A DNA stretch of 64,000 nt from Methanobacteriota archaeon (GTDB lineage: Archaea; Thermoplasmatota; SW-10-69-26; JACQPN01): assembly GCA_016207515.1 (NCBI GenBank), contig JACQPN010000005.1, positions 12,810 to 76,809 on the forward strand. Reading direction: 5' to 3'. The first letter of the stretch is position 1. Every line of letters begins with the position of its first letter. Below the pieces are notes generated by a model, which did not search any database, was not told the DNA's origin, and saw only the letters and a program-made list of their open reading frames with translations. Below are positions 74 through 31,785 of the stretch, piece by piece. Position numbers and translations under genes: made by a program.

Positions 74-823
74 ATGAGGCGCATGCTAGTCGAGGCCGTC
101 GATCAGGAAGCGGTCGCCAAGACGGTGAAGGCCGCAGTCGAGGCCCGGGGCGCCGTCGTCACGTCGTGGACGGAATCGGAGACCGAGTTCGAGGGGTTGA
201 AAGCGGAGAACGGGGCGTTCACGCGCGCCGGCTACGTCGGCACCTACCAGTACCACGGCGAGAAGGACGTGCATCTTCAGGTGCGCCTCTTCGCACTCCT
301 TCCCGAACGTTTGTTCTGGGCGGTGGTCTTCACAGAACTCGCGGTCGTCGTGGCGTTCCTCGTCACGGTCCCGGCGCCGAACCTTTGGGTGATCTCGGCC
401 GTAGTGATGGCACTGGTACTTGGAGGCGCTTATTGGGCCCGGCGGGAATCGACGAAAATGTCGAGCGAACTCGAACTCGAGTTCGGCGCCTACTTGGCCG
501 AGGAACTCACGGCGGAGGGTGCTCCAGCGGACATCGTCGTCCAGGAAGAACAACTCGATGAATTGGAGGAGATCGAGGCGATCGAGCGCGAGTTGCGCCT
601 GGAGGCGACGAAGAAGGAATTGGCGAAGACGAGGCCCGCAATCATCGAAAGAACAAAGGGCGCGCGTGAGAAGCGACCCCCGGCAAGCGCCAAGCCCCAG
701 GACGACGCGGAAGGCAGGCGGAAGCGTCTTCTTACCCTCAAGGCCGAGCTCGAGAAAAAACGCGCTAGCCGGCAAGAATCGTCGAACACTAGAAGCACCA
801 CTTCGGGACCCGCGAAGCCTTAA
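74..823 (+). CDS. hypothetical membrane protein with C-terminal charged coiled-coil region
   Basis: Track ORF. Central hydrophobic segments (FWAVVFTELAVVVAFLVTVPA, VISAVVMALVLGGAYW) are followed by an E/K/R-rich repetitive tail. No recognisable family motif. Confidence 0.4.
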   Translation: MRRMLVEAVDQEAVAKTVKAAVEARGAVVTSWTESETEFEGLKAENGAFTRAGYVGTYQYHGEKDVHLQVRLFALLPERLFWAVVFTELAVVVAFLVTVPAPNLWVISAVVMALVLGGAYWARRESTKMSSELELEFGAYLAEELTAEGAPADIVVQEEQLDELEEIEAIERELRLEATKKELAKTRPAIIERTKGAREKRPPASAKPQDDAEGRRKRLLTLKAELEKKRASRQESSNTRSTTSGPAKP

Positions 824-883: not shown

Positions 884-3049
884 GTGGTCCGGATGGTCCT
901 TCAAAACGCCTTACTCATCTCCATAGGGTCGGCTGTCGCTGCCGGCCTCGTCGCTAGCGGCTTCGCCTTGACGCTCTCGCGACCCGCCAGTCGCGGGAAG
1001 GACAATGCGGCGCTCGCGGCCGTGTCGAGCGCCGTCGCGACCCAAGTCAGGTGGCTCTACCTTCGCCAAGGACAAATCATTGCGGTCACTTGCGCTCTTC
1101 TAGCCGGCATCGTGGGTGTCTTTGCGACCCCCGAAGCTGGTCTCGCCGTCTTGATAGGCGCGGCCACGACGCTTCTCGTGGGGCTTGCGGCCTTGAACCT
1201 GACAGCGGGCGCCGTGTACCGCGTCGCGCTCCTTTCAAAGGACCAAACGCCCGAAGCGCTGCGTCAAGCGCTGAGGGCGGGGACGGCGATAGGACTCCTT
1301 TCGACGGGCCTCACGCTCGTCGTTGTCGCCGCCACGTTGTTCCTTCTCGGAGGAAGCGCACTTACGGGTGCCGGGCTACCGACGATCGACGCTCTTCTCG
1401 GCTTTGCCCTGGGTGCAGCTACGGTGGCGCTTCTCAACCGGCTCGGTGGCGGGATATTCACGAAAAGCGCCGACATAGGGGCGGACCTCGTCGGCCAGGT
1501 CGAAGCGGGCCTCGCCCCCGACGACCCTCGAAACCCCGCTGCGTTCGCAGATGCATGCGGCGACCAATTGGGTTCCGCCGCGGCGGCCGCCTGCGAATTC
1601 GCCGAAGTCTACGCGACGTCGCTGGTGGCCGCGATGGCCCTCGGGGTCGCGCTCGCGATCGGGGCCGCAAGCGTTCCCGCGGAGATCGACGCGTGGGCGA
1701 GCCTGCCGCTCCTCCTTGGGGCGAGCGGAGTCATCGCTTCCATCATCGCGACGCTCGTCTTCGCGTCGGGCAAGGGCGACACCGTCGCCGGCACGAGGAT
1801 GACCCGGGCGTACGTGGTGGGCGGGCTCGTTTCAGGCGTGGGGGGCTACTTCGTCGTGAGCGTCGCGGTCGGGACCGAGAACATCGGCCTCTACATCGCC
1901 TTCCTCCTTGGCATCCTCGGCGGGATGGTCACGGCACTCCTCTCCGAGAAGTACACGACGCCGTCGGGCAAGAAAGTCGCGGAGATCGCCGAATCCAGTA
2001 AGACTGGAAGCGCCACCAACATCATCGCGGGGCTCGGCAACGGCCTCGAAGCGACGGGTTCGCCGACGATGATACTCCTCATCGTCGTCATAGCGGCCTA
2101 CGCGGCGGGCGTGAGCTACTCGGCCGCCAACTCGCTCCAAGCGGGCATACTCGGCATCGCGCTTTCTGGCGTTGGTCTACTTTCGATCACGGCGATCACG
2201 TTGGGCATTTCCATCAACGCCGCGATAACGGATTGCGCGAACGGCCTATGGGCGCTTTCCGGGAACAAGGGGGGGCAGGCGCGCGAAGCGCTCACGGCGA
2301 GCGGCAAGGGTGCGCTTCCCTACGCCCGCTCCATCGTCGTCGCCTCCTCGTTGTTTGCGGCGCTCTCACTCGTCCTTTTCTTCGGCTGGCGCGTCGGCGA
2401 GGCCTGCGGCACGCAACCCGCAGGAGCGGCGGCCGTGGTGTACAACTACGTCTCCTGCGCCAAGGTGATGACTGGAGGGGCTTTGACCGTGAACATCAGC
2501 GACCCTTACGCCCTCGTCGGTCTCTTCATCGGCGGAATGATGCCTTTCCTCGTCACGGCCCACGTCACCCAGGCGGCCTCCAGGACGGCCGTCGGGATCG
2601 TCACGGAATCGAGGCGCCAATTGAGGGAGCGGCCGAACATCCTCGGCGGCTCCGAGAAGCCCGACTACGACGCGGTGGTCAAGGCGGGTTCAGAGGCAAG
2701 CCTCGCGCAGCTCAGCGTCCCGGCCGTGATCGCTTTGGGCATCCCGCTTCTCATCGGCATGGCGCTTCCCCCGACGGCGCTTGCGGGCCTCATAGCCGGC
2801 GTCACGGCCACCGGGCTTCTTCTCGCCATGATGCTCATCCTTTCAGGGGCCGGCTGGGACAGCGCCCGGCAATCCCTGGAGTTTTCGAAGACCGATTCGC
2901 CGCAGCACAAGGCGTCGGTCGTCGGCGACACCGTGGGCGATTCGTTCAAGGACGCCGCCGGGCCGGCGCTGAACGTTCTCATCCGCGTGACGGCGCTCAC
3001 CGCCATCATCCTGCTTCCCTTCTTCCTCTCTCAGAGCCTCATCAGGTAG
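884..3049 (+). CDS. membrane-bound pyrophosphatase (H+-PPase) homolog, divergent paralog
   Basis: About 16 TM helices. Conserved GGGIFTKSADIGADLVGQVEAG and DPRNPA motifs and a C-terminal VVGDTVGDSFKDAAGPALNVLI motif are present. The canonical DNVGDNVGDxAGMGxDLFESY block is replaced by DACGDQLGSAAAAACEFAEVY. The in-frame ATG at 893 is the likely leaderless start. Confidence 0.75.
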   Translation: MVRMVLQNALLISIGSAVAAGLVASGFALTLSRPASRGKDNAALAAVSSAVATQVRWLYLRQGQIIAVTCALLAGIVGVFATPEAGLAVLIGAATTLLVGLAALNLTAGAVYRVALLSKDQTPEALRQALRAGTAIGLLSTGLTLVVVAATLFLLGGSALTGAGLPTIDALLGFALGAATVALLNRLGGGIFTKSADIGADLVGQVEAGLAPDDPRNPAAFADACGDQLGSAAAAACEFAEVYATSLVAAMALGVALAIGAASVPAEIDAWASLPLLLGASGVIASIIATLVFASGKGDTVAGTRMTRAYVVGGLVSGVGGYFVVSVAVGTENIGLYIAFLLGILGGMVTALLSEKYTTPSGKKVAEIAESSKTGSATNIIAGLGNGLEATGSPTMILLIVVIAAYAAGVSYSAANSLQAGILGIALSGVGLLSITAITLGISINAAITDCANGLWALSGNKGGQAREALTASGKGALPYARSIVVASSLFAALSLVLFFGWRVGEACGTQPAGAAAVVYNYVSCAKVMTGGALTVNISDPYALVGLFIGGMMPFLVTAHVTQAASRTAVGIVTESRRQLRERPNILGGSEKPDYDAVVKAGSEASLAQLSVPAVIALGIPLLIGMALPPTALAGLIAGVTATGLLLAMMLILSGAGWDSARQSLEFSKTDSPQHKASVVGDTVGDSFKDAAGPALNVLIRVTALTAIILLPFFLSQSLIR

Positions 3050-3059
3050 GTGCCAAGAA

Positions 3060-3719
3060 ATGTACTCGATAGTCCCAATGGAAGACACCGTACGCATCCC
3101 CCCGTCAGAACTCGGAAACGACCCCATAGAGGTGACGAAGCTCCTCGTGCGGCGCAGTTTCGAGGGCAGGATGACCAAGCGCCACGGCCTCGTGGTGGTC
3201 GCGATGAACATCGTTCGACAGGGCGAGGGCCGCGTGATACACGGCGACGGCGCAGTATACCAGCGCGTCAAGTACGACGCGGTCGTCTTCAAGCCCGAGG
3301 TCGGTGAGATCGTCGAGGGCACCATCTGCGAAGTCGTGGAGTTCGGGGCGTTCGTGCGTTTCGGGCCGCTCGACGGACTTCTGCACATGAGCCAGATAAT
3401 GAACGATTACCTCAACGTCGACACGAAGAACGAACGTCTCATCGGGAAGGAGACCGCCCGCACGCTTTCGATCGGGGACCAGATCCGGGCCCGCTTGGTG
3501 ACGGTGAGCCTCAACGAACTCTCGCCTCGCGAATCGAAGATCGGTCTCACGATGCGCCAACCGGGCCTTGGAAAGCAGGAGTGGCTCGACGAGGACCGCG
3601 CCAAGAAGAGCGGTCAACCCCTGCCGGAGAAACCGAAGGGCGGCCAGGCGAAAAAGCCAAAGCCCGCTGAGGCCCCAAAAGAGGCGTCGGTGGCCGAGAC
3701 GAAGGAGAAGGAGGCCTAA
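3060..3719 (+). CDS. rpoE: DNA-directed RNA polymerase subunit E' (Rpo7) with S1 domain
   Basis: N-terminal Rpb7-like fold, S1 domain (EGTICEVVEFGAFVRFG) and lysine-rich C-terminal tail. First gene of the conserved archaeal operon. Confidence 0.9.
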   Translation: MYSIVPMEDTVRIPPSELGNDPIEVTKLLVRRSFEGRMTKRHGLVVVAMNIVRQGEGRVIHGDGAVYQRVKYDAVVFKPEVGEIVEGTICEVVEFGAFVRFGPLDGLLHMSQIMNDYLNVDTKNERLIGKETARTLSIGDQIRARLVTVSLNELSPRESKIGLTMRQPGLGKQEWLDEDRAKKSGQPLPEKPKGGQAKKPKPAEAPKEASVAETKEKEA

Positions 3720-12166: not shown

Positions 12167-14146
12167 TCATACTACGGGCAATCCTACGTCTTGCAGGTAC
12201 CCAAAGGTCGGATCGTAGAATTCCGGCTTTCTCGTGGCGTCCGCCGCGTCCCCTTCTGGGACAACAATAATCATCCCTTGCCGGGCACGCGTCATGAGTA
12301 CGCGGTAGGCGTTCTTCAGATAGAGTTTTCTTTCGGGTGACTTGATCCGTTTCCACTGATCGCCATGAAACGACCAATGATCCCAACCCTTCTCATGGTA
12401 TCGTAAGTCCGCGTCCCATGCAACGCACGTCCAATCGAGTTCTAATCCCTGAACATGAAATTCCGTGGCTACGTCCTCCAAGTAGTACGAGGACCGGACG
12501 TCCTCTTTTCCATCTAAAAACCAATGCACGGGATCGACCGGCGATCGAACGTGGATGGCATGCGGTTTCAACCGCTCGGCTTGCGAAGAGACAACTATTC
12601 CGTACCGCTCCGACCCTCGGGCCTTCTCTTTCAGCCATGACTTGGCCGTACCCAAGCTCCGGGTCAATACAATCGGATAGCGGTCGGCTTGCCGAATCGA
12701 ACGCCGGGCGCCATCCAAATCGACGTCCAAGATCTGCTTCACGAGCAGTGAAACGTTCTCCGCTCGAAACGAACGCATCGACGTGGCAAGGTGGAGCTCC
12801 GACTTCATCGTCACGTTCGGTCGCGGGCCAAGTGAATCGATCGCTCGTCCCGCCGCATATTCGGTGTCATGTAAGCGCGGCGAAATGAAAATGCCCCAAT
12901 CGGGGTAAGATCGATTAAGTGATTCAATCCATTCGCTTATCCCGGCCTCGCCCGTGTTTATTTCTTGGCCTCCGCCTACGAGACAAATCACGACTGCCCA
13001 ATCCGGGTGCCGATCGAGGCACGAGATGAGGAATTCCGGCTCTGACATGGAAAACCCCGGACGCTGCTTCTTGCGACTCATGAACGCAGCTGTTTGCTTC
13101 CGGTTCCACGCACGCTGGGCTTCATCGAAGATTGCGACGCGCTCGATCGGGGGCCCGTCGTCCTTCAGGCATTCATCCCGGAAATTGTGGATATTTTGAA
13201 TGAACGCCTTAACGCGGCTCCGCGTTTCCCCGAGTCGGACCGAGTGCCCGGCCTCGTCCGACCGTCGCTTCTGGTCACGGGCAAGCGCTTCGCGCAGTAT
13301 CTTGACGAGTGGGCCGTTTCCGGACAGATATACTGCATGCAATTCGCTCTTGGCATCCATGTGCTCGGTCGCAACATTGAGTCCGACGAGCGTCTTGCCC
13401 GCGCCGGGGACGCCTGTGACAAAACAAATCACCTTGCGCGATTCCCCCCGGGCGGAATCTATTATTTCGGACAGAAGATGCGATGTCGCGGAAAGATTCA
13501 CCGCGCCGCCGTCGCTTCTCGCGATTTCGGTTACAGAGTGATTCCCGTAAAGCGCACACGCCGCCTCGATGATTGTTGGGGTCGGCCGATACCGACCGGA
13601 CGTCCATGCCCGCCGGTCTATTCGCAGACCCGGCGCCCGGGCCAGGATTTGACGCATGGTGGGTCCGAATGTCCGGAGGTTTGCGCGAATCGGGTCGAAC
13701 AGACCGTCGTTCAACCTTTCGGAAAGAACAGGCGACTCGGGGTCGCTCGCGCCTGTCGCGATCAGGACCGGTACAATGAAGGCGTGATGGCTGGCCTCAT
13801 GGAAATTCTTGAGGTCTAGCGCATAATCCCAAACTTGTTCAATGGCATGGCGAGGAAACGTCTTCTCGCCAACCTTGAATTCCAGAACGAGGATCACAGA
13901 GTCGAGAACCAGCACAACGTCAATCCGACGGCCCATCCTGGGAATCACGTACTCGAAAAAGATGGCACCATCCATGTTCCCGAGTGCCGCCTGAAGAAAA
14001 CCCACCTCTTCACGCCATGCGGCAAGCTGCGCTTCCGTTGGTGGAAGGCCGACTTGGCTTGCCTCAGCGGCCAGACGGTCGAGGATTGCGCTCCCATCGG
14101 CCTTGGAGAAGTCCGTGATTTCGCTGGAGTAAAAAGCCCGGTCCAT
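12167..14146 (-). CDS. DUF2075-type protein: N-terminal PD-(D/E)XK (Mrr/NERD-like) nuclease + P-loop ATPase + SF1-helicase-like C-terminal domain
   Basis: Nuclease motif [21 protein letters not shown]. Walker [11 protein letters not shown] and Walker [10 protein letters not shown]-terminal [15 protein letters not shown] resembles the UvrD-type helicase motif VI region. Confidence 0.7.
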
Positions 14147-14293: not shown

Positions 14294-14367
14294 CGCGCCC
14301 GCCGAGATTCGAACTCGGGTCCTGAGGTCCGGAACCTCATGTCCTATCCAAGCTAGACTACGGGCGC
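14294..14367 (-). tRNA. tRNA-Arg (anticodon CCG), 74 nt, no encoded CCA, no intron
   Basis: Manual cloverleaf: acceptor GCGCCCG/CGGGCGC, D-stem GTCT/GGAC, anticodon stem TGAGG/CCTCA with loop TTCCGGA, T-arm CCGAG-TTCGAAT-CTCGG, discriminator G. TATA (GTTATATC) lies about 29 nt upstream. Confidence 0.8.
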
Positions 14368-14775: not shown

Positions 14776-15549
14776 TTACCCGCCCACCGAGTGCACCCTG
14801 AATGCTCCGGCCACGGTGTATTCGACGCTCAATGGCGCCACCCCTTCGTTCTCCCACAGCAGGCTGAAAATGTCCCGCCTCATGGCAGTGAACGTCCCCT
14901 CCCCTTCATGGGCGGTCTTTTCCACGTGGTTGGTGGTCACGCCGTCCTTGTGGCTGTGGACGTTGAAGTATATCATTCCGTCCGCCTCGACTACTTTCCA
15001 CTTGTAGGTGAGGGTCGCGTTTTCTTCCATTACGAGGTTGGCTTCGAGGAATTGCCTCGCCGCGATTGATTTGGTGTCCTTCAGTTCGGCGGTTGTGACC
15101 ACTTCACGCGTGAGAGTGATCGCGACCGTGTATGCCTCGTCGACTGCCCGTTGGGTGCGGACGATTATCTTCCATTTGCCCGGTAGTGGCGGCTCGACGG
15201 TCGCCACCGAGCTCTTCGTGTCGCTCTCTGGAAAGCCTGATCCCTGGTTCTTTCCCGAGGGGTCGAGCAGTGAGAAAGAGAGCGCGGATGCCGCCGATGC
15301 CCATGTGAGGTCGGCTTTGATGTCGACGACGCGCGCCTCGACGTCGAATTCGTGGATCTTCTCGCCGGGCGCGACGGGCGTTCCTGCGAGTCGGTCCGTG
15401 AAGGTGGTCTTGATCGGCGCCAATGGCTCGCTTGAGGTAGTCGGTGGCGTGGTCCCCGCCGCCGGGTCGTCATTTTGCTGGGTCACGCATCCCGAGAGAA
15501 GCATGAGGGCCAACGCAAGGTATGCAAGAGGGCTCCGATGGGCCGCCAT
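14776..15549 (-). CDS. secreted lipoprotein, unknown function
   Basis: Start re-assigned to MAAHRSPLAYLALALMLLSGC (signal peptide plus LSGC lipobox-like site). Thr/Ser-rich linker, then a beta-rich domain. Confidence 0.5.
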   Translation of the reverse strand: MAAHRSPLAYLALALMLLSGCVTQQNDDPAAGTTPPTTSSEPLAPIKTTFTDRLAGTPVAPGEKIHEFDVEARVVDIKADLTWASAASALSFSLLDPSGKNQGSGFPESDTKSSVATVEPPLPGKWKIIVRTQRAVDEAYTVAITLTREVVTTAELKDTKSIAARQFLEANLVMEENATLTYKWKVVEADGMIYFNVHSHKDGVTTNHVEKTAHEGEGTFTAMRRDIFSLLWENEGVAPLSVEYTVAGAFRVHSVGG

Positions 15550-15656
15550 CGTTTGGTCCAGCACAGGAAGTCGCCTTAAACCTTCTTGTGGGGGACGGTC
15601 GCGGGACCCGCCCATGGCGCCTAAAGTGTAAAGCGGGGTTAGCCGTTGGCAGGTCG

Positions 15657-17150
15657 ATGCCGCCGAAACAGACTGCCCGTAGCCTTCTCGAAAAGGGCTT
15701 GAAGCCGAAGACCCCAGGCGAGATGCTACGCGAGACCATCCTGACTTCACTCAGCAAGCTTCACTCCGACGGGTTCTCCCGCGAAGAGTCGATGCAAGCG
15801 CTCTTCCCGAACACGATACTCGATTCTGACGTCCTGGAGACCGTGACGTCGGCGCTCCTTTCCGGGAACAATTTTCTCGTCATCGGGCCCCCCGGTAGCG
15901 GGAAGACGACACTTGCGAAGGACGTGTGGCAACTATATCCCAAAGAAGGTGTCGCGGTGGAGACCTGCCCCGTGCAAGATGACCCGTTCTCGCTGGTGGA
16001 CGAGAAGTTCTCGAAGACGGCCCCCCCATGCCCCTACTGCAAGACGAGGTACGGTGGCGTTTCACTCCAAGAACTCGGCGAATTCGACCCGAAGGCGGTG
16101 AAACCGGACGAGGTGCCCGTGAAGCGGCTGCACTTGAGAGAGGGTTATGGTTTCGCGCGGGTCCAGGGCTCACCCGAGGTGTTCCCGGACAATCTCACCG
16201 GTTCTATCAACCTCTCGAAATTGGAAGAGTTGGGCGACCCCACGTCGCCCTTGGTGTTGGAGCCTGGGAAACTTTTGCAGGCAAACAGGGGCGTTCTCCT
16301 CATCGACGAGATCGGGAAGTTACCGAGGGGGACGCAAAACGTCCTTCTACAAGCACTCCAAGAACGGATCGTGACGCCGGCGAAATCAAGGGAAACGTTC
16401 CCGGCGAGTTTCATCGCCGTCACTACGTCCAACCTCGACGACCTCGACAACATCAGCGAGCCGTTGAACGATCGCCTCGTGAATCTCCAGGTTCCCTTCA
16501 ACAAGGACCATTCGAAGAACATGCGGATCGTTGAAGTGGCGTTCAGCGCGCAAAACGCCGTGAAGATCCCATGGGTGTTTCGCGAGGCGAGTGTGCACCT
16601 CATCGAGGAGTGGCGTAAGACCAGCCAAGGCCTCCCGGAACTCTACGAGGTGGGAAGCAACAGGAGCATGATCGACGTCCTACGCCGTTCCGAATCGTTT
16701 GCCGTCCTCGCCGGAAGCAGCGCTTTGAGGGCCGAGGACTTCGGCCGCGGGATAAAGGAGGCGATGCGGGGCCGCATCAGGGCACGCGGCTCAGACAGCC
16801 TCGACGAATCGCGTTCCATCGTCGACCAGTTCGTCGAGAAGACCTGGCGACGCTCGTTGGAGCGTTCCTGCGTCACCCACTGGTGCCTGTTCTTCGAGGG
16901 CGAGTTGAAGAAGGACCGGGCGGAGGCGGAGAGGGTGTTGAAGGAGGTGCGAAGTGTAGTCACCATGGACGCAGAAAAACAGGTGGAGGCGCTACGAGAC
17001 CACAGCCCGCACACGCGCTACAAGCGGTTCGCCGACCACGTGGGGCGCATGGAGCGCGCCACAAAGGCTGACGTCCCGGGAAACGTCGCAGGCACCATAG
17101 CGCTCTTCGACGAACTCAAGGTCTTTGACAAGGACCCGGCGAAGATCTGA
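15657..17150 (+). CDS. AAA+ ATPase, Mg-chelatase ChlI/MoxR-like, with C4 zinc-ribbon insertion
   Basis: Walker A FLVIGPPGSGKTTLAKD. Inserted CPVQDD...CPYCKTRYGG. Walker B / sensor region GVLLIDEIGKLPRGTQNVLLQALQERIVTPAKSRETFPASFIAVTTSNLDDLD is ChlI-like. Start re-assigned to the Met at 15657 (MPPKQTARSLLEKG). Confidence 0.75.
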   Translation: MPPKQTARSLLEKGLKPKTPGEMLRETILTSLSKLHSDGFSREESMQALFPNTILDSDVLETVTSALLSGNNFLVIGPPGSGKTTLAKDVWQLYPKEGVAVETCPVQDDPFSLVDEKFSKTAPPCPYCKTRYGGVSLQELGEFDPKAVKPDEVPVKRLHLREGYGFARVQGSPEVFPDNLTGSINLSKLEELGDPTSPLVLEPGKLLQANRGVLLIDEIGKLPRGTQNVLLQALQERIVTPAKSRETFPASFIAVTTSNLDDLDNISEPLNDRLVNLQVPFNKDHSKNMRIVEVAFSAQNAVKIPWVFREASVHLIEEWRKTSQGLPELYEVGSNRSMIDVLRRSESFAVLAGSSALRAEDFGRGIKEAMRGRIRARGSDSLDESRSIVDQFVEKTWRRSLERSCVTHWCLFFEGELKKDRAEAERVLKEVRSVVTMDAEKQVEALRDHSPHTRYKRFADHVGRMERATKADVPGNVAGTIALFDELKVFDKDPAKI

Positions 17151-19032
17151 GGGCCATGATGCGAAGGCGAGTTCTCGCTGGGGGTTGACGGTCTTCTCCC
17201 ACATCCCCGATTGTCTTTCCTGGGAGGACGCCTTCCACCTCACGAGCGAAGAGAGATTGGAACTCGTAAGACGCCTTGCGGAAGAAGGCCCGGGTGCGAT
17301 CGACAGGTTCCTTGAGGAACGAAAGGAACAAGGCGGCCTGGGAGCGCATTTCGAGGACGTGAAGCGGCGTATGGAGGCGTTCGCCGCAGAAAGACGGCGC
17401 CGACTCCTCGAGGAGTTCGAGGAGAGGCGGAAAAGGGCGGAAGCGGAATCGGGCCAGAAACTCGTCACCGTGAGCGAGGCGAAGAAGTCGGCAGAAGAGC
17501 GGCTTCGAGAGCTTCTTGCCTCCCGGGACGCTGAATTGCGAGGCGCGCTACTTGGCGGAGACCTCGTCCGACTCACTTTGTCGGCAAGCCCAGGCGAAGA
17601 ACGGAAACGTGGTCCGATCGACGTGCTCCTCGGTTTCATTCTGGGAATTCTTGCCGCCATCGGACGCGTTTGGCGATCGTTCCTTTCGTTCCTAGGCCTA
17701 CGACGACGGGCACGGCGCACCACAATAGCAGCGTTTCGAGGCCTCGCGGGAACTTACGCCGAGATCGAGGGACGGGTCGGACTCGCGTTGCGATCAAGCG
17801 ACGATGTCCGGTCACTGGTGCGCCAACGAATGGGCCAACTCAGGGCGGGAGACCGGTTCTCTCTCTGGTGGCGTAAGCTCCTCGGCCTCGAAGACGACGA
17901 ATCCATCCTCCGCCGGTTCATCGAGGACGAGGTGGAGAAAGGCCTCACCGAGAAGGAACGCGAGATGATGCGGCAACGGGAGGAGTTGGAAAAGAACCTC
18001 GCGGGCCTCGATGAGCGGCGCCGTGCCGAGGAAGCCGAGACCCAAGGCGAGCTTGACCGCATCGAACGTGAACGCGAGGCGGCGATAAAGAGACTACGGG
18101 AACTCGCCTCGAACGCGCCCAGGGAGAGACTACGCCAAGAGGTCGTGGAGGACCTGCTCGCGTCGGGCCTCGTCCGGGAGACCGAAGGCAACATCACGAT
18201 CACGCACCGGCTCATCGACAGGTTCGCAGACCTCGTACTCGCAGCGGAGACGAAGTCCGCCAGGAGCGGCAAACGAAGCGGCTTCGGTCGGACGGCGGAG
18301 GGTGAAGGCGATTACGAGCGCTCGCCGCTTCTCTCGCGCGAAGACATGTCGAGGATGGACATAGCCGAATCCCTCGTTTCCGCGAGGTTGAACCACCCGC
18401 GCGTGAAGCACATGTTCGACGACGACGTCATCATCCACCGCGAGATACGCTCCGCCGTCACACACGCGGTCCTAGTCATGGACGCGAGCGCCAGCATGGA
18501 AGAGAACGGACGGATACTCGCGGCAAAAAGAGCGGTCCTGGCGCTCCACAGCGCCGTAAAACGATCGAACCCGCGTAACATCGTCGACGTCCTCGTGATG
18601 AGGACGGACGTGCGTAGGATCGACCTTCTCGAGGCGTGGAACCTCAAGCCACGGGGCTTCACGAACACGGGGAGGGCACTGAGGATGGCGTCGGACCTCT
18701 TGGAGCGGGAAGGCAAGGACAGGCAACTCCTCTACCTCGTGACCGACGGCCTCCCCGAGGCGCACACGGAGGGCGGCGAGGATCTTGCGGGCTTTCCCGA
18801 GAAAGCGATGCGCTCGGCGCTCGATTCATCGCGCCGACTCCGCTCTCTTCCGGGCGCCTACTTCGTCCAGGTGCTCTTGGAGGCCAAGGACCCCACGTAC
18901 GTCGAGGCGGCGGAATCCATAGCCTCACAAGGCAAGGGCCGTGTCCTTCGCGTCGACCCGGGCGACTTGGCCCAAAGGAGCCTCGCCGAATTCAGTCGTG
19001 CGACGAGGCAGTGGCAGGAAATACCGGCCTGA
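17125..19032 (+). CDS. von Willebrand factor A (vWA) domain protein with N-terminal coiled-coil and a single TM segment
   Basis: C-terminal vWA with MIDAS DASAS...T...D (HAVLVMDASASMEENGR...LLYLVTDGLPEAH). TM segment IDVLLGFILGILAAIGRVW. Long E/R-rich coiled coils. Overlaps the AAA+ gene by 26 nt. Confidence 0.75.
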   Translation: MTRTRRRSEGHDAKASSRWGLTVFSHIPDCLSWEDAFHLTSEERLELVRRLAEEGPGAIDRFLEERKEQGGLGAHFEDVKRRMEAFAAERRRRLLEEFEERRKRAEAESGQKLVTVSEAKKSAEERLRELLASRDAELRGALLGGDLVRLTLSASPGEERKRGPIDVLLGFILGILAAIGRVWRSFLSFLGLRRRARRTTIAAFRGLAGTYAEIEGRVGLALRSSDDVRSLVRQRMGQLRAGDRFSLWWRKLLGLEDDESILRRFIEDEVEKGLTEKEREMMRQREELEKNLAGLDERRRAEEAETQGELDRIEREREAAIKRLRELASNAPRERLRQEVVEDLLASGLVRETEGNITITHRLIDRFADLVLAAETKSARSGKRSGFGRTAEGEGDYERSPLLSREDMSRMDIAESLVSARLNHPRVKHMFDDDVIIHREIRSAVTHAVLVMDASASMEENGRILAAKRAVLALHSAVKRSNPRNIVDVLVMRTDVRRIDLLEAWNLKPRGFTNTGRALRMASDLLEREGKDRQLLYLVTDGLPEAHTEGGEDLAGFPEKAMRSALDSSRRLRSLPGAYFVQVLLEAKDPTYVEAAESIASQGKGRVLRVDPGDLAQRSLAEFSRATRQWQEIPA

Positions 19033-23272: not shown

Positions 23273-25312
23273 ATGGCCGACCTCACCCCCTACGCCTTGG
23301 AACTGTCCCTTGCGGCCGCCGGCGTCGCACTCGTCTACGCGATCTACCTCACGATGAGGATACTCCGGCAGGACGAGGGCTCCGACAAGATGAAGGCCAT
23401 CGCACAAGCCATCCGTGAAGGCTCCATGGCGTACCTTGCGCGCCAGTACAGGACCATAGCCATCATCGCTGTCGCGGTGGCCGTCCTCTTAGCCGTCTAC
23501 CCGCCGCTCGGTCCCGTGGCCGCCGGCGCCTTCATACTTGGAGCCGTCCTTTCGGCGCTCGCAGGGTATGCCGGCATGCTCATCGCCATCCGGGCGAACG
23601 TCCGCACCGCGCGCGCCGCCGAACGCGGCGTCGGGCCCGCCATGGACCTGGCTTTTTCGGGCGGCACCGTCACGGGCATGGCCATCGTAGGGCTAGGGCT
23701 CTTCGGGATTGCCGGCCTCTACATGGTGCTTCGCGACGTGAACCTCCTTATCGGATTCGGGTTCGGAGCCTCGCTCATCTCGCTTTTCGCCCGCGTGGGC
23801 GGCGGAATCTACACGAAAGTCGCGGATGTCGGGGCGGACCTCGTGGGAAAACTCGAAGCGGGAATACCGGAGGACGACGCCCGTAACCCCGCCGTGATCG
23901 CGGACAACGTCGGCGACAACGTCGGCGACTGCGCCGGCATGGGTGCCGACCTCTTCGAATCCTACGTCGTCACTTTGATCGCGGCGATGATTCTCGGAGC
24001 GCTCACGGTTGGAAAGACCCTGAACGGGTTCGTCGTCGGCGACGAAGTGGTGCTGCTCCCACTCATCATCGCGGCCGGCGGCATCGCCGGGAGCATCCTC
24101 GGCAGCGTCTTCGTGCGCCCAAAGACCGAGGCCAAGATCTGGCCCTCCCTCAACGTGGGGATATACGTCGCCGCGGGCGTCTCGGCCATCCTTATCTACG
24201 TGGCGACGCTGGGGCAGCCGAACGGGGTGCAATACTTCCTCGCGGCCTCCGTCGGGATACTCACCACCATCATCATCAGCCACATCACGGCTTACTACAC
24301 GTCCACCGACAAGCCGCCGGTGCGCGAACTCGCCGAGCTCTCGAACGGCGGCCCCACGGCGAACGTCCTTTTCGGCCTCGGGATCGGGTTCCGAAGCACG
24401 ATACTCCCGATCCTCACCATCTCCGCGGCGATCCTCATCTCCTACCAACTCGCGGGGATCTACGGCATTGCACTTGCCGCCATGGGCCTCCTCTCGGTGA
24501 CCGGCATCATCATGTCCATCGACAGCTACGGGCCGATAAGCGATAATGCCGGCGGCATCGCCGAGATGAGCGGAATGTCATCCGACGTGCGTAAGGTCAC
24601 CGACGCGCTCGACGCTGTTGGAAACACAACGAAGGCGACGACCAAGGGGGTCGCGATCGCTAGCGCGTCGATCAGTGCCCTCGCCCTCTTCACGGCGTTC
24701 ACGCAAGAGGCAAAACTCGGGGACGTGAACCTCTTCGCTATGCCCGTCCTCGTCGGCCTCATCATCGGAGCGACGGTGCCGCTCGTCTTTTCCGCGTGGG
24801 CGATGCAGGCGGTGGGCCGAAGTGCGAACCTCATGGTCGAGGAAGTTCGCCGCCAGTTCCGTGAGATCCCCGGTATCATGGAAGGGACGGCGAAGCCAGA
24901 CTACGCAAGGTGTGTCGACATCTCGACGCAAGCGGCCATCCGGCAACTTGGAAGGCTCGGCGCCATCGCAGTCATCCCACCAATAGTCATCGGGCTTCTC
25001 TTGGGACCTCTCGCCCTGGCAGGTTTCCTCGTCGGAAGCATCCTCACCGGACAGCTTCTAGCCTACACGCTCTGCAACGCGGGCGCGGCATGGGACAACG
25101 GCAAGAAGTACATCGAACAGGGTAACCACGGTGGAAAGAAGAGCCCCGCGCATCAGACCGCGGTCATCGGAGACACCATCGGCGACCCTGCGAAGGACAC
25201 TGCGGGACCCGCGATAAACAGCCTCATAAAGGTCATCAACACGGTGAGTCTGCTCCTCGCGCCCTTGCTCGCCGGGTTGACGATCGCGGCATACATACCG
25301 GGATGGTCATGA
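23273..25312 (+). CDS. hppA: H+-translocating membrane pyrophosphatase, canonical, K+-independent type
   Basis: GGGIYTKVADVGADLVGKLEAG, DNVGDNVGDCAGMGADLFESY, AYYTSTDKPPVRELA and AVIGDTIGDPAKDTAGPAINSLIKV are all canonical. GNTTKATTKG has Lys at the K+-dependence position. Confidence 0.9.
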   Translation: MADLTPYALELSLAAAGVALVYAIYLTMRILRQDEGSDKMKAIAQAIREGSMAYLARQYRTIAIIAVAVAVLLAVYPPLGPVAAGAFILGAVLSALAGYAGMLIAIRANVRTARAAERGVGPAMDLAFSGGTVTGMAIVGLGLFGIAGLYMVLRDVNLLIGFGFGASLISLFARVGGGIYTKVADVGADLVGKLEAGIPEDDARNPAVIADNVGDNVGDCAGMGADLFESYVVTLIAAMILGALTVGKTLNGFVVGDEVVLLPLIIAAGGIAGSILGSVFVRPKTEAKIWPSLNVGIYVAAGVSAILIYVATLGQPNGVQYFLAASVGILTTIIISHITAYYTSTDKPPVRELAELSNGGPTANVLFGLGIGFRSTILPILTISAAILISYQLAGIYGIALAAMGLLSVTGIIMSIDSYGPISDNAGGIAEMSGMSSDVRKVTDALDAVGNTTKATTKGVAIASASISALALFTAFTQEAKLGDVNLFAMPVLVGLIIGATVPLVFSAWAMQAVGRSANLMVEEVRRQFREIPGIMEGTAKPDYARCVDISTQAAIRQLGRLGAIAVIPPIVIGLLLGPLALAGFLVGSILTGQLLAYTLCNAGAAWDNGKKYIEQGNHGGKKSPAHQTAVIGDTIGDPAKDTAGPAINSLIKVINTVSLLLAPLLAGLTIAAYIPGWS

Positions 25313-29412: not shown

Positions 29413-30570
29413 TCAAAGTTCTTTCCGTGCCTGGGCCGCGCCCTCTGCGAGCGACCGGAGCTTCGCGTGCGCCACGTCCCAACTTCTGGTGCGTAGTCCA
29501 CAGTCGGGGTTCGCGAGGACGCGCTCTTTTCCGAGCAGTTTCGCCGCGTAGATTATCCGGTCACGCACAAGTTCAGGCTTCTCCACGTCGTCGCGATGGA
29601 CGTCAAGGACGCCAAGGCCGATGTCCGCCTTGTCGCCGTGCTGTTTCATAAGCTCGATGAACTCGTACCCCCAACGGACGTCCTTGGTCGTGCCCGCCTT
29701 CCACGAGTCGCGGTTGCCGAACTCCATCGCGTACTCGCTGCAGTCCTTGAGGTCGAGTATCGCCGGGTAGAGCGCCTTGTAATCGCTGAAGCAAAGGTGC
29801 AGGCTGAACCGGCACCCCGCGATCCCCTTCGTCGACTCGTTGAAGGACTCGACGAATATGGGCACTTCCTCGGGCTTCGTCGCGACCGCCGGCTCGTCGA
29901 TCTGGATGCGTGTGGCACCCGCTTTGACGAGGGCCTCGATGTTCGGGCGTATGACGTTCCTGGCGATGTCCACCGCGAATTCGCGTTTCGCCGCGTAGCG
30001 CGCCGTCGCGCTCGTCGTCCCGGTGGCACCCGCCCTCTTCAGGTAGTACTCATTGTACGACCAGTCGGCGATGGTGAAAGCGCCCGTTATCGGGACCTTG
30101 ACGATCCCCTTCGCCTTGGCCTTCACGTACTCGAATTCGTCGTTGTGGAAGGGCGAAAGGAGCGTCGGTCGCTCGACGATGGCCGCCTTCAGGTAGTACT
30201 TGTTGTCGAAGCTTCGCACGTGGCCGAGGAACCGCAGTCCCTTGGTGGAGCGCGCGGCGTGCTCGTACATCTCGGTGCGTCGCTGTTCGCCGTCGTAGAC
30301 GATGTCGAGTCCGGCGGATTCGAGGTAACGTATCCCGAAAAGGCTCGACCACTCGGCAACCGCGTCCTTCTCCGCGTCCGTGAGCTTCGGTTTGTTGAGT
30401 AAGGCGACGAGCGGTCTTGCATCCGTGCCGGTGATCTTGGCCCAGCGTTCGCATTCGGCTATGTCGGCAGGCGTTATGGGTTTTCCCGCTGCGGCCTTGA
30501 CACGCCAATTAGGCTTCGCGAGGCTTCCGATCTCCTGCGTCGGGATACCGGGTGTCGCCATTTCAAGCAC
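29413..30570 (-). CDS. cobalamin-independent methionine synthase (MetE) C-terminal-domain homolog
   Basis: IQIDEPA, HLCFSDY and NPDCGL Zn/homocysteine-binding motifs. Confidence 0.8.
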   Translation of the reverse strand: MLEMATPGIPTQEIGSLAKPNWRVKAAAGKPITPADIAECERWAKITGTDARPLVALLNKPKLTDAEKDAVAEWSSLFGIRYLESAGLDIVYDGEQRRTEMYEHAARSTKGLRFLGHVRSFDNKYYLKAAIVERPTLLSPFHNDEFEYVKAKAKGIVKVPITGAFTIADWSYNEYYLKRAGATGTTSATARYAAKREFAVDIARNVIRPNIEALVKAGATRIQIDEPAVATKPEEVPIFVESFNESTKGIAGCRFSLHLCFSDYKALYPAILDLKDCSEYAMEFGNRDSWKAGTTKDVRWGYEFIELMKQHGDKADIGLGVLDVHRDDVEKPELVRDRIIYAAKLLGKERVLANPDCGLRTRSWDVAHAKLRSLAEGAAQARKEL

Positions 30571-31519
30571 CGCCCGCGATCTTTGCCGCCTGTCCGAGGG
30601 CAGCGACCTTCTTCGCCGCCACCGTCGCTGGAAGGAGTTCCAGGTCGGAGTTCGGTCCGATTAGGATATTCACGCCTGGGTTCGCCTGTTTGATCGTCTT
30701 CACGTGGCTTGCGATGGCCTTCGGGTCTTCGACGAGGGAATTGCGCCCGTCGACGACGCCGAGGATGAGGTGCTTGCCGGCAAACGGGCTCTTTGCGAAC
30801 TCGTGCGCCGCGTGGAGGTCTATTCCGATGTAACCGACGGGGAACTTCGCAAGTTCGGCCGCCCAGGGCGTCACGTCGCCAAAGTACGTGTGGTAGGACG
30901 AGGTGCCCCTGAAGCCTTGGAGCGCCGCCCCGATGGCCTCGCCGGTCGCCGCCACCTCACGTTTCGACGGGGCGAGCCTCACGACCGCAGGATCGTTGAA
31001 CTGGATGAACGAAGCTCCTGCCGATTGGAGGCTTTGCACTTCGGAGCGAAGCGCGTCGCCGAAGGCGAGCGCGAGTTTCTCGCGCGATCCGAAGTACTCG
31101 TCGCGCGCTAGGCCTGCGAACGTGAACGGCGAGGGAAGGATCACTCCCCATTTCTCGCCCTGTTTGAAAGCCCGGGTCTCGACGTACTTGTTGATGAAAC
31201 CGGCCTTCTTCGGCCTTAGATTCCCGGTGACCGTGGCTTGCCGGTAGAAGCAGTTGTTGTCGAAATACCGTGTGAGGGTGCCGACGCTGACCCCGTCGAG
31301 GTTCTCGGCGAAGGGACGCGTCACGTCCTGCCAGCGTAGATTCCCGTCTGTCACGAAGGCGAAGCCGGCGTCTCGCTGGATCCGCGTTACGTTATCGAAA
31401 TCCTTGGCAAACGCCGCCTCCAACTGGGCGTCGTCGATGCGCTTGCGGTCGTGGTCGCGAGTCGCTGCGACCAGTTCTTCGGATCTTGGGAACGTGCCTG
31501 TAAGAATGGCGTTGACCAT
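30563..31519 (-). CDS. MetE N-terminal-domain homolog (UroD-like barrel), partner of the upstream-overlapping gene
   Basis: Start re-assigned to MVNAILTGTFPRSEE. Overlaps the downstream MetE-C-like gene by 8 nt. This is the known archaeal split arrangement. Confidence 0.65.
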   Translation of the reverse strand: MVNAILTGTFPRSEELVAATRDHDRKRIDDAQLEAAFAKDFDNVTRIQRDAGFAFVTDGNLRWQDVTRPFAENLDGVSVGTLTRYFDNNCFYRQATVTGNLRPKKAGFINKYVETRAFKQGEKWGVILPSPFTFAGLARDEYFGSREKLALAFGDALRSEVQSLQSAGASFIQFNDPAVVRLAPSKREVAATGEAIGAALQGFRGTSSYHTYFGDVTPWAAELAKFPVGYIGIDLHAAHEFAKSPFAGKHLILGVVDGRNSLVEDPKAIASHVKTIKQANPGVNILIGPNSDLELLPATVAAKKVAALGQAAKIAGGA

Positions 31520-31785
31520 GGTGTCACACCTTGGTTTCGCGAGAGACATTTTCCTATATAATACCTGACGGTAGGAAAATGCGCCCAGCGCATACACATG
31601 AGATGCGCCTTGCCAGGCAACCGGCTTTTGGAACGGGAGCCGCGGGAAGCTTGTCCTACGCCGGCGACGCTTCGGGGACACGGGTTTGAAGAGGCCGCCT
31701 CGCCGTTCCCGCGACGGGGACGTCCACCAACGGCGCCCCGGTCGGCCAAACGACATATACGCGGCTCAGTCTAACCGTAGTTCGG

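Follow-up and report, generated by a model that had tools for sequence, protein, structure and literature searches.

Membrane-integral pyrophosphatases (mPPases) form obligate dimers that show half-of-the-sites behaviour, and few known ion pumps are more conserved. Models of pyrophosphate (PPi)-triggered hydrolysis and ion movement are built around D6.43, D6.50, D11.50, K12.50 and K16.50, positions that are 98-99.7% invariant and whose first number denotes the transmembrane (TM) helix. TM6, TM11 and TM12 position, latch and release the attacking water (the D6.43-K12.50 'mousetrap'), hold the K+/Lys cationic centre and provide the link to the ion gate. Here we describe an mPPase homolog from a Thermoplasmatota genome that keeps most of the residues of the Mg-PPi cage and differs from the family at D6.43, D6.50, D11.50, K12.50 and K16.50. 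It is encoded at 884..3049 of the stretch of DNA that was analysed (64,000 nucleotides of contig JACQPN010000005.1, assembly GCA_016207515.1; hereafter the window), which also encodes a second mPPase, paralog 2.

The mechanism of the canonical enzyme gives these residues defined roles. At rest, an ion pair with K12.50 keeps D6.43 at a distance from the active site; when substrate binds, TM12 is pushed down, the pair breaks, and D6.43 and D16.39 jointly activate the water (Li et al. 2016, PMC5150537). D6.43 is treated as required to activate the hydrolytic water, with D16.39 alone on the water 'the enzyme is inactive', and mutation of K12.50 abolishes hydrolysis and pumping alike (Li et al. 2016, PMC5150537). 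D6.50 and D6.43 have both been described as essential; T12.49 touches D11.50 and, via M6.47, affects D6.50 and D6.43, the T12.49A variant has almost no activity, and a part in inter-subunit communication is ascribed to TM12 (Strauss et al. 2024, PMC10897367). At the cationic centre, A12.46 with G/A12.49 is the signature of K+-dependent enzymes and K12.46 with T12.49 that of K+-independent enzymes, in which K12.46 replaces K+ (PMC10897367). The hydrolytic centre comprises 16 residues, i.e., 12 acidic residues, K5.58, K15.64, K16.38 and one TM12 Asn (Holmes et al. 2019, PMC6882861). Family-wide identity is 99.5% at S3.50, 99.7% at D6.50, 98.1% at D11.50, 99.7% at K12.50 and 99.4% at V13.50 (Holmes et al. 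2019, PMC6882861, Table 3). The divergent homolog reads T, E, S, R and A at these positions, and so differs at all five.

A complete predicted fold outside the known functional clades

The divergent gene is an intact open reading frame (ORF; Table 1), and the second of its two possible starts, ATG 893, is the one used by an identical database protein, P0001. Its product matches PF03030 (H_PPase) over the full length of the family hidden Markov model (HMM), with residues 36-710 on profile positions 16-645 of 645 and a score of 438.9 bits against a cutoff of 29.7. Paralog 2 scores 849.2 bits, also over its full length, in agreement with an earlier note on this DNA, which had read two mPPase homologs from the sequence. 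The divergent product has 16 TM helices. An AlphaFold2 model, built from a 59-sequence alignment and judged by its confidence values and secondary structure, has a mean predicted local distance difference test (pLDDT) score of 87.9 and a predicted TM-score of 0.91; pLDDT falls below 50 at residues 510-518 (718-residue numbering), within the loop between TM12 and TM13. In Foldseek comparisons the model reached TM-scores of 0.85-0.89 to the Thermotoga maritima (TmPPase), Vigna radiata (VrPPase) and Pyrobaculum aerophilum (PaPPase) enzymes, and of 0.80-0.89 to 36 mPPase chains covering every solved mPPase; no fold other than mPPase was matched at E<=1e-3. The divergent homolog is thus predicted to have the whole mPPase fold, with its 16 helices in two concentric rings, and the confident model, together with its superposition on solved mPPases, argues that it is neither a fragment nor a chimera.

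Within this fold the sequence departs strongly from the family. The product was aligned with 68 diverse representatives, and columns conserved in at least 85% (n=111) were taken as near-invariant. It keeps 67 of these 111 columns and has lost 44; the other 68 representatives retain at least 80, and typically 100 or more. As measured on this alignment, the departure exceeds by far both chance and ordinary family variation. Its identity to every mPPase examined is 29-35%, compared with 42-57% among canonical plant, bacterial and archaeal enzymes. With none of the 13 NCBIfam mPPase equivalog models does it reach the cutoff: the best score is 455, for NF001960 (cutoff 546), and that for TIGR01104 is 353 (cutoff 651.9). 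In a neighbour-joining (NJ) tree no branch is longer than its stem, at 0.89 substitutions per site. Both the NCBIfam cutoffs and the tree therefore place it outside any known functional mPPase clade, and the description of the gene as a highly divergent paralog stands.

The lost columns are unevenly distributed. TM5 keeps 18 of 21 near-invariant columns and TM16 keeps 13 of 16, and both are largely spared; the substitutions cluster in TM6 (7/15 kept), TM11 (3/10) and TM12 (4/13).

Kept and replaced functional residues

Functional positions were assigned in Vigna radiata (Vr) numbering by alignment to PDB entries, with the Ballesteros-Weinstein scheme and the sets of residues given by Holmes et al. 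2019 (PMC6882861). Of the 16 hydrolytic-centre residues, 12 are identical in the divergent homolog (K5.58, D5.61, D5.65, D5.77, D6.35, D6.39, D11.57, D15.61, D16.31, D16.35, K16.38 and D16.39), which falls short of the full canonical set by four changes, E5.76 to P212, D6.43 to S231, N12.43 (Vr N534) to K475 and K15.64 to R662. The three basic positions that contact PPi are kept as K, R and K. The first two Asp residues of the DNVGDNVGD motif are likewise kept, and the third, D6.43 (Vr D287), is the one replaced by Ser. This leaves the nucleophile Asp pair incomplete, with D16.39 present (D690) and position 6.43 occupied by Ser231 in both known orthologs. The inner-ring helices were checked for a new fixed acidic residue able to replace D6.43, i.e., a 'migrated' general base, and none was found. 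The inner-ring helices have instead gained basic residues (K356, K364, R467 and K475), and two new Cys residues, C225 and C237, flank S231.

Retention is much lower in the funnel, gate and cationic centre, where 3 of 12 residues are kept (R5.50, E6.53 and N16.46) and the remainder are changed (S5.43A, D6.50E, S6.54V, D11.50S, D12.39T, Leu at 12.46, Ala at 12.49, K12.50R and K16.50R); the contrast with the 12/16 of the hydrolytic centre gives p = 0.02 in a Fisher test made post hoc. The coupling-funnel network retains R5.50, with Glu, Ser and Arg in place of D6.50, D11.50 and K12.50, and D6.50 is invariant in all 94 other aligned sequences. In the ion gate, alongside the kept E6.53 and N16.46, the changes at D6.50 (to Glu) and K16.50 (to Arg) preserve charge, and those at S5.43 (to Ala) and S6.54 (to Val) remove hydroxyls. 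At the cationic centre, L478 (12.46) and A481 (12.49) match neither the K+-dependent nor the K+-independent signature. Across pocket and funnel, net charge shifts by about +3, from the loss of E5.76, D6.43, D11.50 and D12.39, the gain of K475 and the loss of K5.69 and K15.65.

These assignments revise several motif-level statements of the earlier note. It was right that the divergent ORF keeps GGGIFTKSADIGADLVG and DDPRNPA, that the canonical TM6 motif is gone, with DACGDQLGSAAAAACEFAEVY standing where canonical enzymes have DNVGDNVGDxAGMGxDLFESY, and that SEKYTT stands in place of EYYTS. The PVRDIA block, which it called unrecognisable, is represented by KKVAEIAESSKTGSATNIIAGLG, which aligns to the canonical block with 56-60% of the stretch identical to the family consensus. 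Nor is the GNTTAA region absent, as had been stated: it is in register and substituted (SGKGALPYARS), with D527 changed to Glu and K541 to Arg at the same 14-residue spacing. The statement that several Mg-PPi-ligating Asp residues are lost was correct for D6.43, lost from DNVGDNVGD, and overstated for the ligands as a whole, most of which are kept. In alignment with the Vigna and Thermotoga enzymes the acidic residues of the hydrolytic centre are thus largely retained in place, in a protein that belongs to no known functional clade.

Paralog 2 provides a canonical reference from the same genome. It is 35% identical to the divergent homolog, with the two genes 20 kb apart, and keeps 108 of the 111 near-invariant columns. 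It passes NF001960 (864) and TIGR01104 (791), and carries GNTTKATTKG, i.e., the K12.46/T12.49 signature of K+-independent H+-PPases; its earlier assignment as a canonical enzyme of K+-independent type is borne out.

Relatives and selection

Homologs close to the divergent protein are rare. Among 5.8 billion protein clusters, a word-indexed search returned as members of its clade only the identical P0001, from two Logan assemblies, and an 86% identical ortholog, P0002, from a JGI metagenome, and an exhaustive HMMER scan of 1.84 billion representatives returned the same pair, with the next match 34% identical. A scan of JGI metagenome contigs gave no further clade member and nothing closer than 36%; across searches, the next-best matches beyond the clade are 34-38% identical. 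The clade is therefore known from two sequences, both from uncultured archaea, with the ortholog as the single relative among ~15 billion proteins. The P0002 gene model (696 residues) is truncated at its 5' end. The ortholog spans L001 2-2149, and because tblastn homology runs through TM1 to base 2 of that contig, it too is full length; the contig runs on into rpoE'.

All 15 altered functional sites are identical in this ortholog, which comes from an independent metagenome. Between the two genes the ratio of nonsynonymous to synonymous substitution rates (dN/dS) is 0.086 at a dS of ~0.98, and it is lower still in the segments TM4-5 (0.045) and TM15-16 (0.034). Pairs of canonical Thermoplasmatota mPPases treated by the same method gave 0.03-0.3, so that purifying selection on the divergent homolog is as strong as on canonical enzymes. 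G+C content at third codon positions (GC3) is 0.81 for both paralogs (0.81-0.82), equal to that of neighbouring genes, and recent horizontal transfer of either paralog was rejected on this ground.

The mPPase slot upstream of rpoE'

The divergent gene lies among genes for eIF2-gamma, a PIN-domain protein, RpoE', Spt4, DUF359, S24e and S27ae. The gap of 10 nucleotides between its stop codon and the ATG of rpoE' suggests co-transcription, as for canonical orthologs. In Thermoplasmatota, rpoE' anchors a conserved synteny of mPPase, rpoE', spt4, DUF359 and S24e. The closest RpoE' relatives are at most 78% identical and nearly all labelled Thermoplasmatota or Thermoplasmata, which together with the neighbouring genes places the organism in Thermoplasmatota. 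Some 28 of 80 related Thermoplasmatota loci have a canonical mPPase whose gene stops at most 150 nucleotides upstream of rpoE' (L012-L014, L017, L018, L022-L031, L036, L041, L043, L057, L060, L061, L073, L074, L080, L081 and others). These linked mPPases include both K+-dependent and K+-independent types. We know of no earlier description of an ion-pump gene linked in this way to a transcription/translation cluster; the linkage is widespread in Thermoplasmatota, had gone unremarked, and is documented here. In L006 and L012 the order PIN, homolog of a 249-residue protein, mPPase, rpoE' is that of the window. The divergent gene thus occupies the ancestral mPPase slot upstream of rpoE', and paralog 2 is found at another site, where it adjoins a transketolase gene.

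The origin of the sequence in this slot is less clear-cut than its position. Of three subgroup HMMs, that of the L012-14 group gives the divergent homolog its highest score, 392 bits, the remaining two giving 357 and 341, and raw identity also favours that group as nearest. The NJ tree, on Kimura distances, places the divergent clade instead with a K+-independent representative, P0207, at 61% bootstrap, a grouping that is probably long-branch attraction. All candidate sister relatives are fully canonical at the functional sites, and it follows that all the changes arose on the stem of the two-member clade. Given the linkage of mPPase and rpoE' genes, the event can be interpreted as the resident gene diverging once a second copy, a canonical one, was at hand.

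Possible functions of the divergent homolog

We are about evenly divided between belief and doubt in the reading that we put forward, namely that the divergent homolog is a neofunctionalised descendant of the mPPase in this slot, which binds PPi, is catalytically impaired and has a regulatory or sensing output rather than bulk pumping. The resident mPPase gene upstream of rpoE' would have passed through a burst of change (stem ~0.9 substitutions per site) and then come under purifying selection. This burst would have rewritten the coupling network on TM6, TM11 and TM12 and left the Mg-PPi cage on TM5, TM15 and TM16 largely intact, so that the cytoplasmic funnel of the protein would still bind Mg-PPi or a ligand closely resembling it. 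Ser at 6.43 would leave the water to D16.39 alone, as in canonical enzymes at rest, which are inactive, and hydrolysis therefore probably does not occur or is very slow. K475 (12.43) and R467, with D12.39, D11.50 and E5.76 lost, probably replace bound cations, which would extend the known substitution of K12.46 for K+. Since the gate charges stay (E6.50, E6.53, R16.50, N16.46) and the hydroxyls of S5.43 and S6.54 are lost, Na+ binding is unlikely and proton handling is possible. The output would then be conformational or regulatory, from a sensor, a gated conductance or a partner of the canonical pump. A pseudoenzyme in the operational sense is an enzyme fold, kept by selection, that lacks catalytic residues and catalysis; judged from sequence, the divergent homolog is a candidate, with catalytic residues missing (D6.43S and others) under purifying selection. 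The suggestion in the earlier note of a pseudo-enzyme or of altered function fits the loss of D6.43; its suggestion of a different substrate has no positive evidence, because most Mg-PPi ligands are retained.

Several considerations weigh against this reading. The literature searched held no activity data for the divergent homolog, nor for any mPPase carrying D6.43S. A hydrogen bond from Ser to the water is still conceivable, and D16.39 might by itself sustain slower catalysis. Five of the changes at invariant charged positions conserve charge (Asp to Glu, Lys to Arg), which looks like a compensated, working machine, and pseudoenzyme calls based on motifs have repeatedly proved active. Because the subgroup HMM scores and the NJ tree disagree on the sister group, it is synteny that carries the claim of positional orthology, and because two sequences define the clade, it counts for little statistically that the altered residues are conserved.

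The same charge-conserving swaps lead to a rival that is less probable and still a serious contender, namely that the protein is a still-working PPi-energised cation pump, likely for H+, of a new subfamily using S6.43 with D16.39, R12.50, K12.43 and E6.50/R16.50. Such a pump would account for purifying selection equal to that on canonical pumps, for the 12/16 hydrolytic-centre residues and the three PPi-contacting basic positions, and for Glu or Arg at D6.50, K12.50, K15.64 and K16.50 beside the retained E6.53 and N16.46. A full fold predicted with high confidence and an operon-like position with rpoE' like that of the canonical orthologs point the same way, and K12.46 in place of K+ is a precedent for natural re-engineering of the cationic centre (PMC10897367). 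Set against this, D6.43, D6.50, D11.50 and K12.50 are 98-99.7% conserved across the family and described as essential, no substitute acidic residue lies nearby, the protein is below every curated equivalog threshold, and a genome that already has a canonical pump has no need for a second. A changed ligand or job, in which the mPPase scaffold binds or transports something other than Mg-PPi, e.g., a less metal-loaded phosphate compound or another ion, seems to us unlikely: the more positive pocket and funnel, the two new Cys flanking position 6.43 and the strongly conserved new extracytoplasmic loop would suit it, and yet the Mg-PPi cage is the best-preserved part of the protein, the neighbouring translation and transcription genes hint at no other substrate, and the literature searched holds no precedent.

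A further idea, which we hold at a similarly low level of belief, is that the divergent homolog is a dedicated non-catalytic, PPi-binding partner that forms a heterodimer with paralog 2, the genome's own canonical K+-independent H+-PPase. If true, this would fix an asymmetry that homodimers reach dynamically, or let the pump respond to the PPi level, and it would be the first natural mPPase pseudo-subunit. Dimer-interface positions are variable across the family and the states of the divergent homolog are ordinary, so that the interface residues do not discriminate. Decay of a copy that paralog 2 had rendered superfluous, or an error of assembly, is very improbable as an account of the gene. 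The presence of the canonical paralog and the loss of 44/111 conserved positions would be expected of decay; however, the 721-codon ORF is intact, the same sequence is found in the window and in two independent assemblies, dN/dS is 0.086 at dS ~1, every altered site is shared with the ortholog, the fold prediction is confident and codon usage is native. On the dN/dS, the shared sites and the identical independent assemblies, pseudogene and assembly artefact were excluded.

The divergent homolog is a natural test case for three competing coupling models, 'mousetrap', 'binding-change' and 'billiard', because a selected natural protein keeps the Mg-PPi cage and swaps the whole network. If active, it would embody an alternative solution to coupling; if inactive, it would be the first candidate mPPase pseudoenzyme, and would raise the question of the role of a 16-TM protein that binds PPi and leaves it unhydrolysed. 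For specialists, this experiment of nature on coupling is, read from sequence, moderately interesting, its value being limited by the tiny clade.

Comparison with canonical and degenerate mPPases

K+-independent H+-mPPases, represented by PaPPase (PDB 8B37) and paralog 2, share the 16-TM fold (TM-score 0.84-0.89 to 8b37), Glu at 6.53 with none at 6.57, N16.46 and a built-in positive charge near the cationic centre. They also share an archaeal origin, and the nearest RpoE' relatives, L006, L010 and L011, carry this type near rpoE'. Unlike them, the divergent homolog has Leu and Ala for K12.46 and T12.49, with Lys at 12.43 instead, and carries D6.43S, D6.50E, D11.50S, K12.50R and K16.50R; its identity to them is 31-33%, against 47-56% among members. 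The K+-dependent-type, rpoE'-linked mPPases of L012-L014 occupy the identical slot, L012 with the gene order of the window, and show the highest pairwise identity to the divergent homolog (34-38%) along with the best subgroup HMM score. Both share several local motifs, e.g., GT(E/A)N.I..GL(Y/F).AF and LLGIALS. Unlike the divergent homolog, the L012-L014 enzymes are canonical at all 31 functional sites, and NJ bootstraps do not make them its sister. The Vigna radiata H+-PPase (4A01) and the Thermotoga maritima Na+-PPase (4AV3/5LZQ), at 24-30% identity, have in common with it the fold and 12 Mg-PPi cage residues, and differ in that D6.43, K12.50, D11.50, D12.39, N12.43, A12.46, D6.50, S6.54 and K16.50 are replaced in the divergent homolog.

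Five further proteins among the database representatives (P0213, P0190, P0220, P0234 and P0146) resemble the divergent homolog in being full-length PF03030 members with several 'essential' residues replaced, e.g., D6.39K, D6.43G and D11.57Y in P0213 and D15.61Q and K16.38T in P0190. They differ from it in their substitution sets and grouping, and none has D6.50E; judged by these differences, they appear to be independent degenerate cases. Degenerate mPPase-like proteins may thus form a small, unstudied class. We found no published natural mPPase without D6.43 or D6.50, no mPPase pseudoenzyme and nothing directly relevant on D287 mutants, in a literature coverage that is incomplete and gives weak evidence of absence.

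Unusual domain architectures were also seen in the family. Eight bacterial mPPases (P0013, P0020, P0021, P0027, P0042, P0044, P0054 and P0058) are fused to an OmpA-family domain (PF00691+PF03030) and four (P0070, P0071, P0075 and P0101) to a YceI-like domain (PF03030+PF04264). Some mPPase representatives are 900-1160 residues long, and these are unusual architectures for a pump.

Other features of the locus and window

Table 1. Positions of the mPPase genes, their functional segments and associated features in the window.
Feature	Position	Strand	Details
Divergent mPPase homolog	884..3049	+	Intact ORF: 721 residues from GTG 884, 718 from ATG 893
TM5 and loop 5-6	1445..1540	+	GGGIFTKSADIGADLVG-QVEAGLAPDDPRNPA; K5.58, D5.61, D5.65, D5.77 kept; K5.69 to Q205, E5.76 to P212
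TM6	1550..1621	+	DACGDQLGSAAAAACEFAEVYATS; D6.35 (D223), D6.39 (D227), E6.53 (E241) kept
TM6, changes	1550..1621	+	D6.43 to S231, D6.50 to E238, S6.54 to V242; new Cys 225 and 237
TM11-TM12	2210..2332	+	D11.57 (D450) kept; D11.50 to S443, T526 to R467, D12.39 to T471, N12.43 to K475
TM12	within 2210..2332	+	L478 at 12.46, A481 at 12.49, K12.50 to R482
Extended non-cytoplasmic 12-13 loop, residues 501-539	2384..2500	+	Two Cys, C508 and C525
TM15-TM16	2846..2986	+	GAGWDSARQSLE ... GDTVGDSFKDAAGPALNVLIR; D15.61, D16.31, D16.35, K16.38, D16.39, N16.46 kept
TM15-TM16, changes	2846..2986	+	K15.64 to R662, K15.65 to Q663, K16.50 to R701
Paralog 2, canonical K+-independent-type mPPase	23273..25312	+	All catalytic, funnel and gate residues present
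rpoE' (RNA polymerase subunit E', SHS2_Rpb7-N + S1)	3060..3719	+	ATG 10 nucleotides after the stop codon of the divergent gene
Upstream 249-residue membrane/coiled-coil protein	74..823	+	Predicted TM segments; charged, coiled-coil-like C-terminus
TATA-like box, tataaa	865..870	+	23-28 nucleotides before ATG 893; read from sequence

The 12-13 loop is longer than in most mPPases, and at ~97% identity between the orthologs it is conserved above most TM helices; the extension is lineage-specific. The tataaa element is a possible archaeal promoter, and its spacing would fit a leaderless transcript; a bacterial promoter and terminator scan of the locus was uninformative for an archaeon. The 249-residue protein encoded upstream matched no family in Pfam or NCBIfam. 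Its homologs lie directly upstream of canonical mPPase genes (L006 1196-1570 and L012 2452-2799), with ~38% conservation in the N-terminal half, and it may be an mPPase-associated membrane protein. The genomic context gave no clue to function or to another substrate, the neighbours being translation and transcription genes and the 249-residue protein accompanying canonical mPPases also.

The interval that separates the two mPPase genes holds a gene for a Schlafen group-3-like helicase (12167..14146, - strand) beside a tRNA gene (14294..14367, - strand), and also a gene for an AAA+ (MoxR/PrkA-like) ATPase with a VWA-domain protein gene after it (15522..19032, + strand); these genes may form a mobile or defence-related island. 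Downstream of paralog 2, two adjacent genes at 29413..31756 (- strand) match the catalytic domain of cobalamin-independent methionine synthase (MetE) and may represent a split or duplicated MetE.

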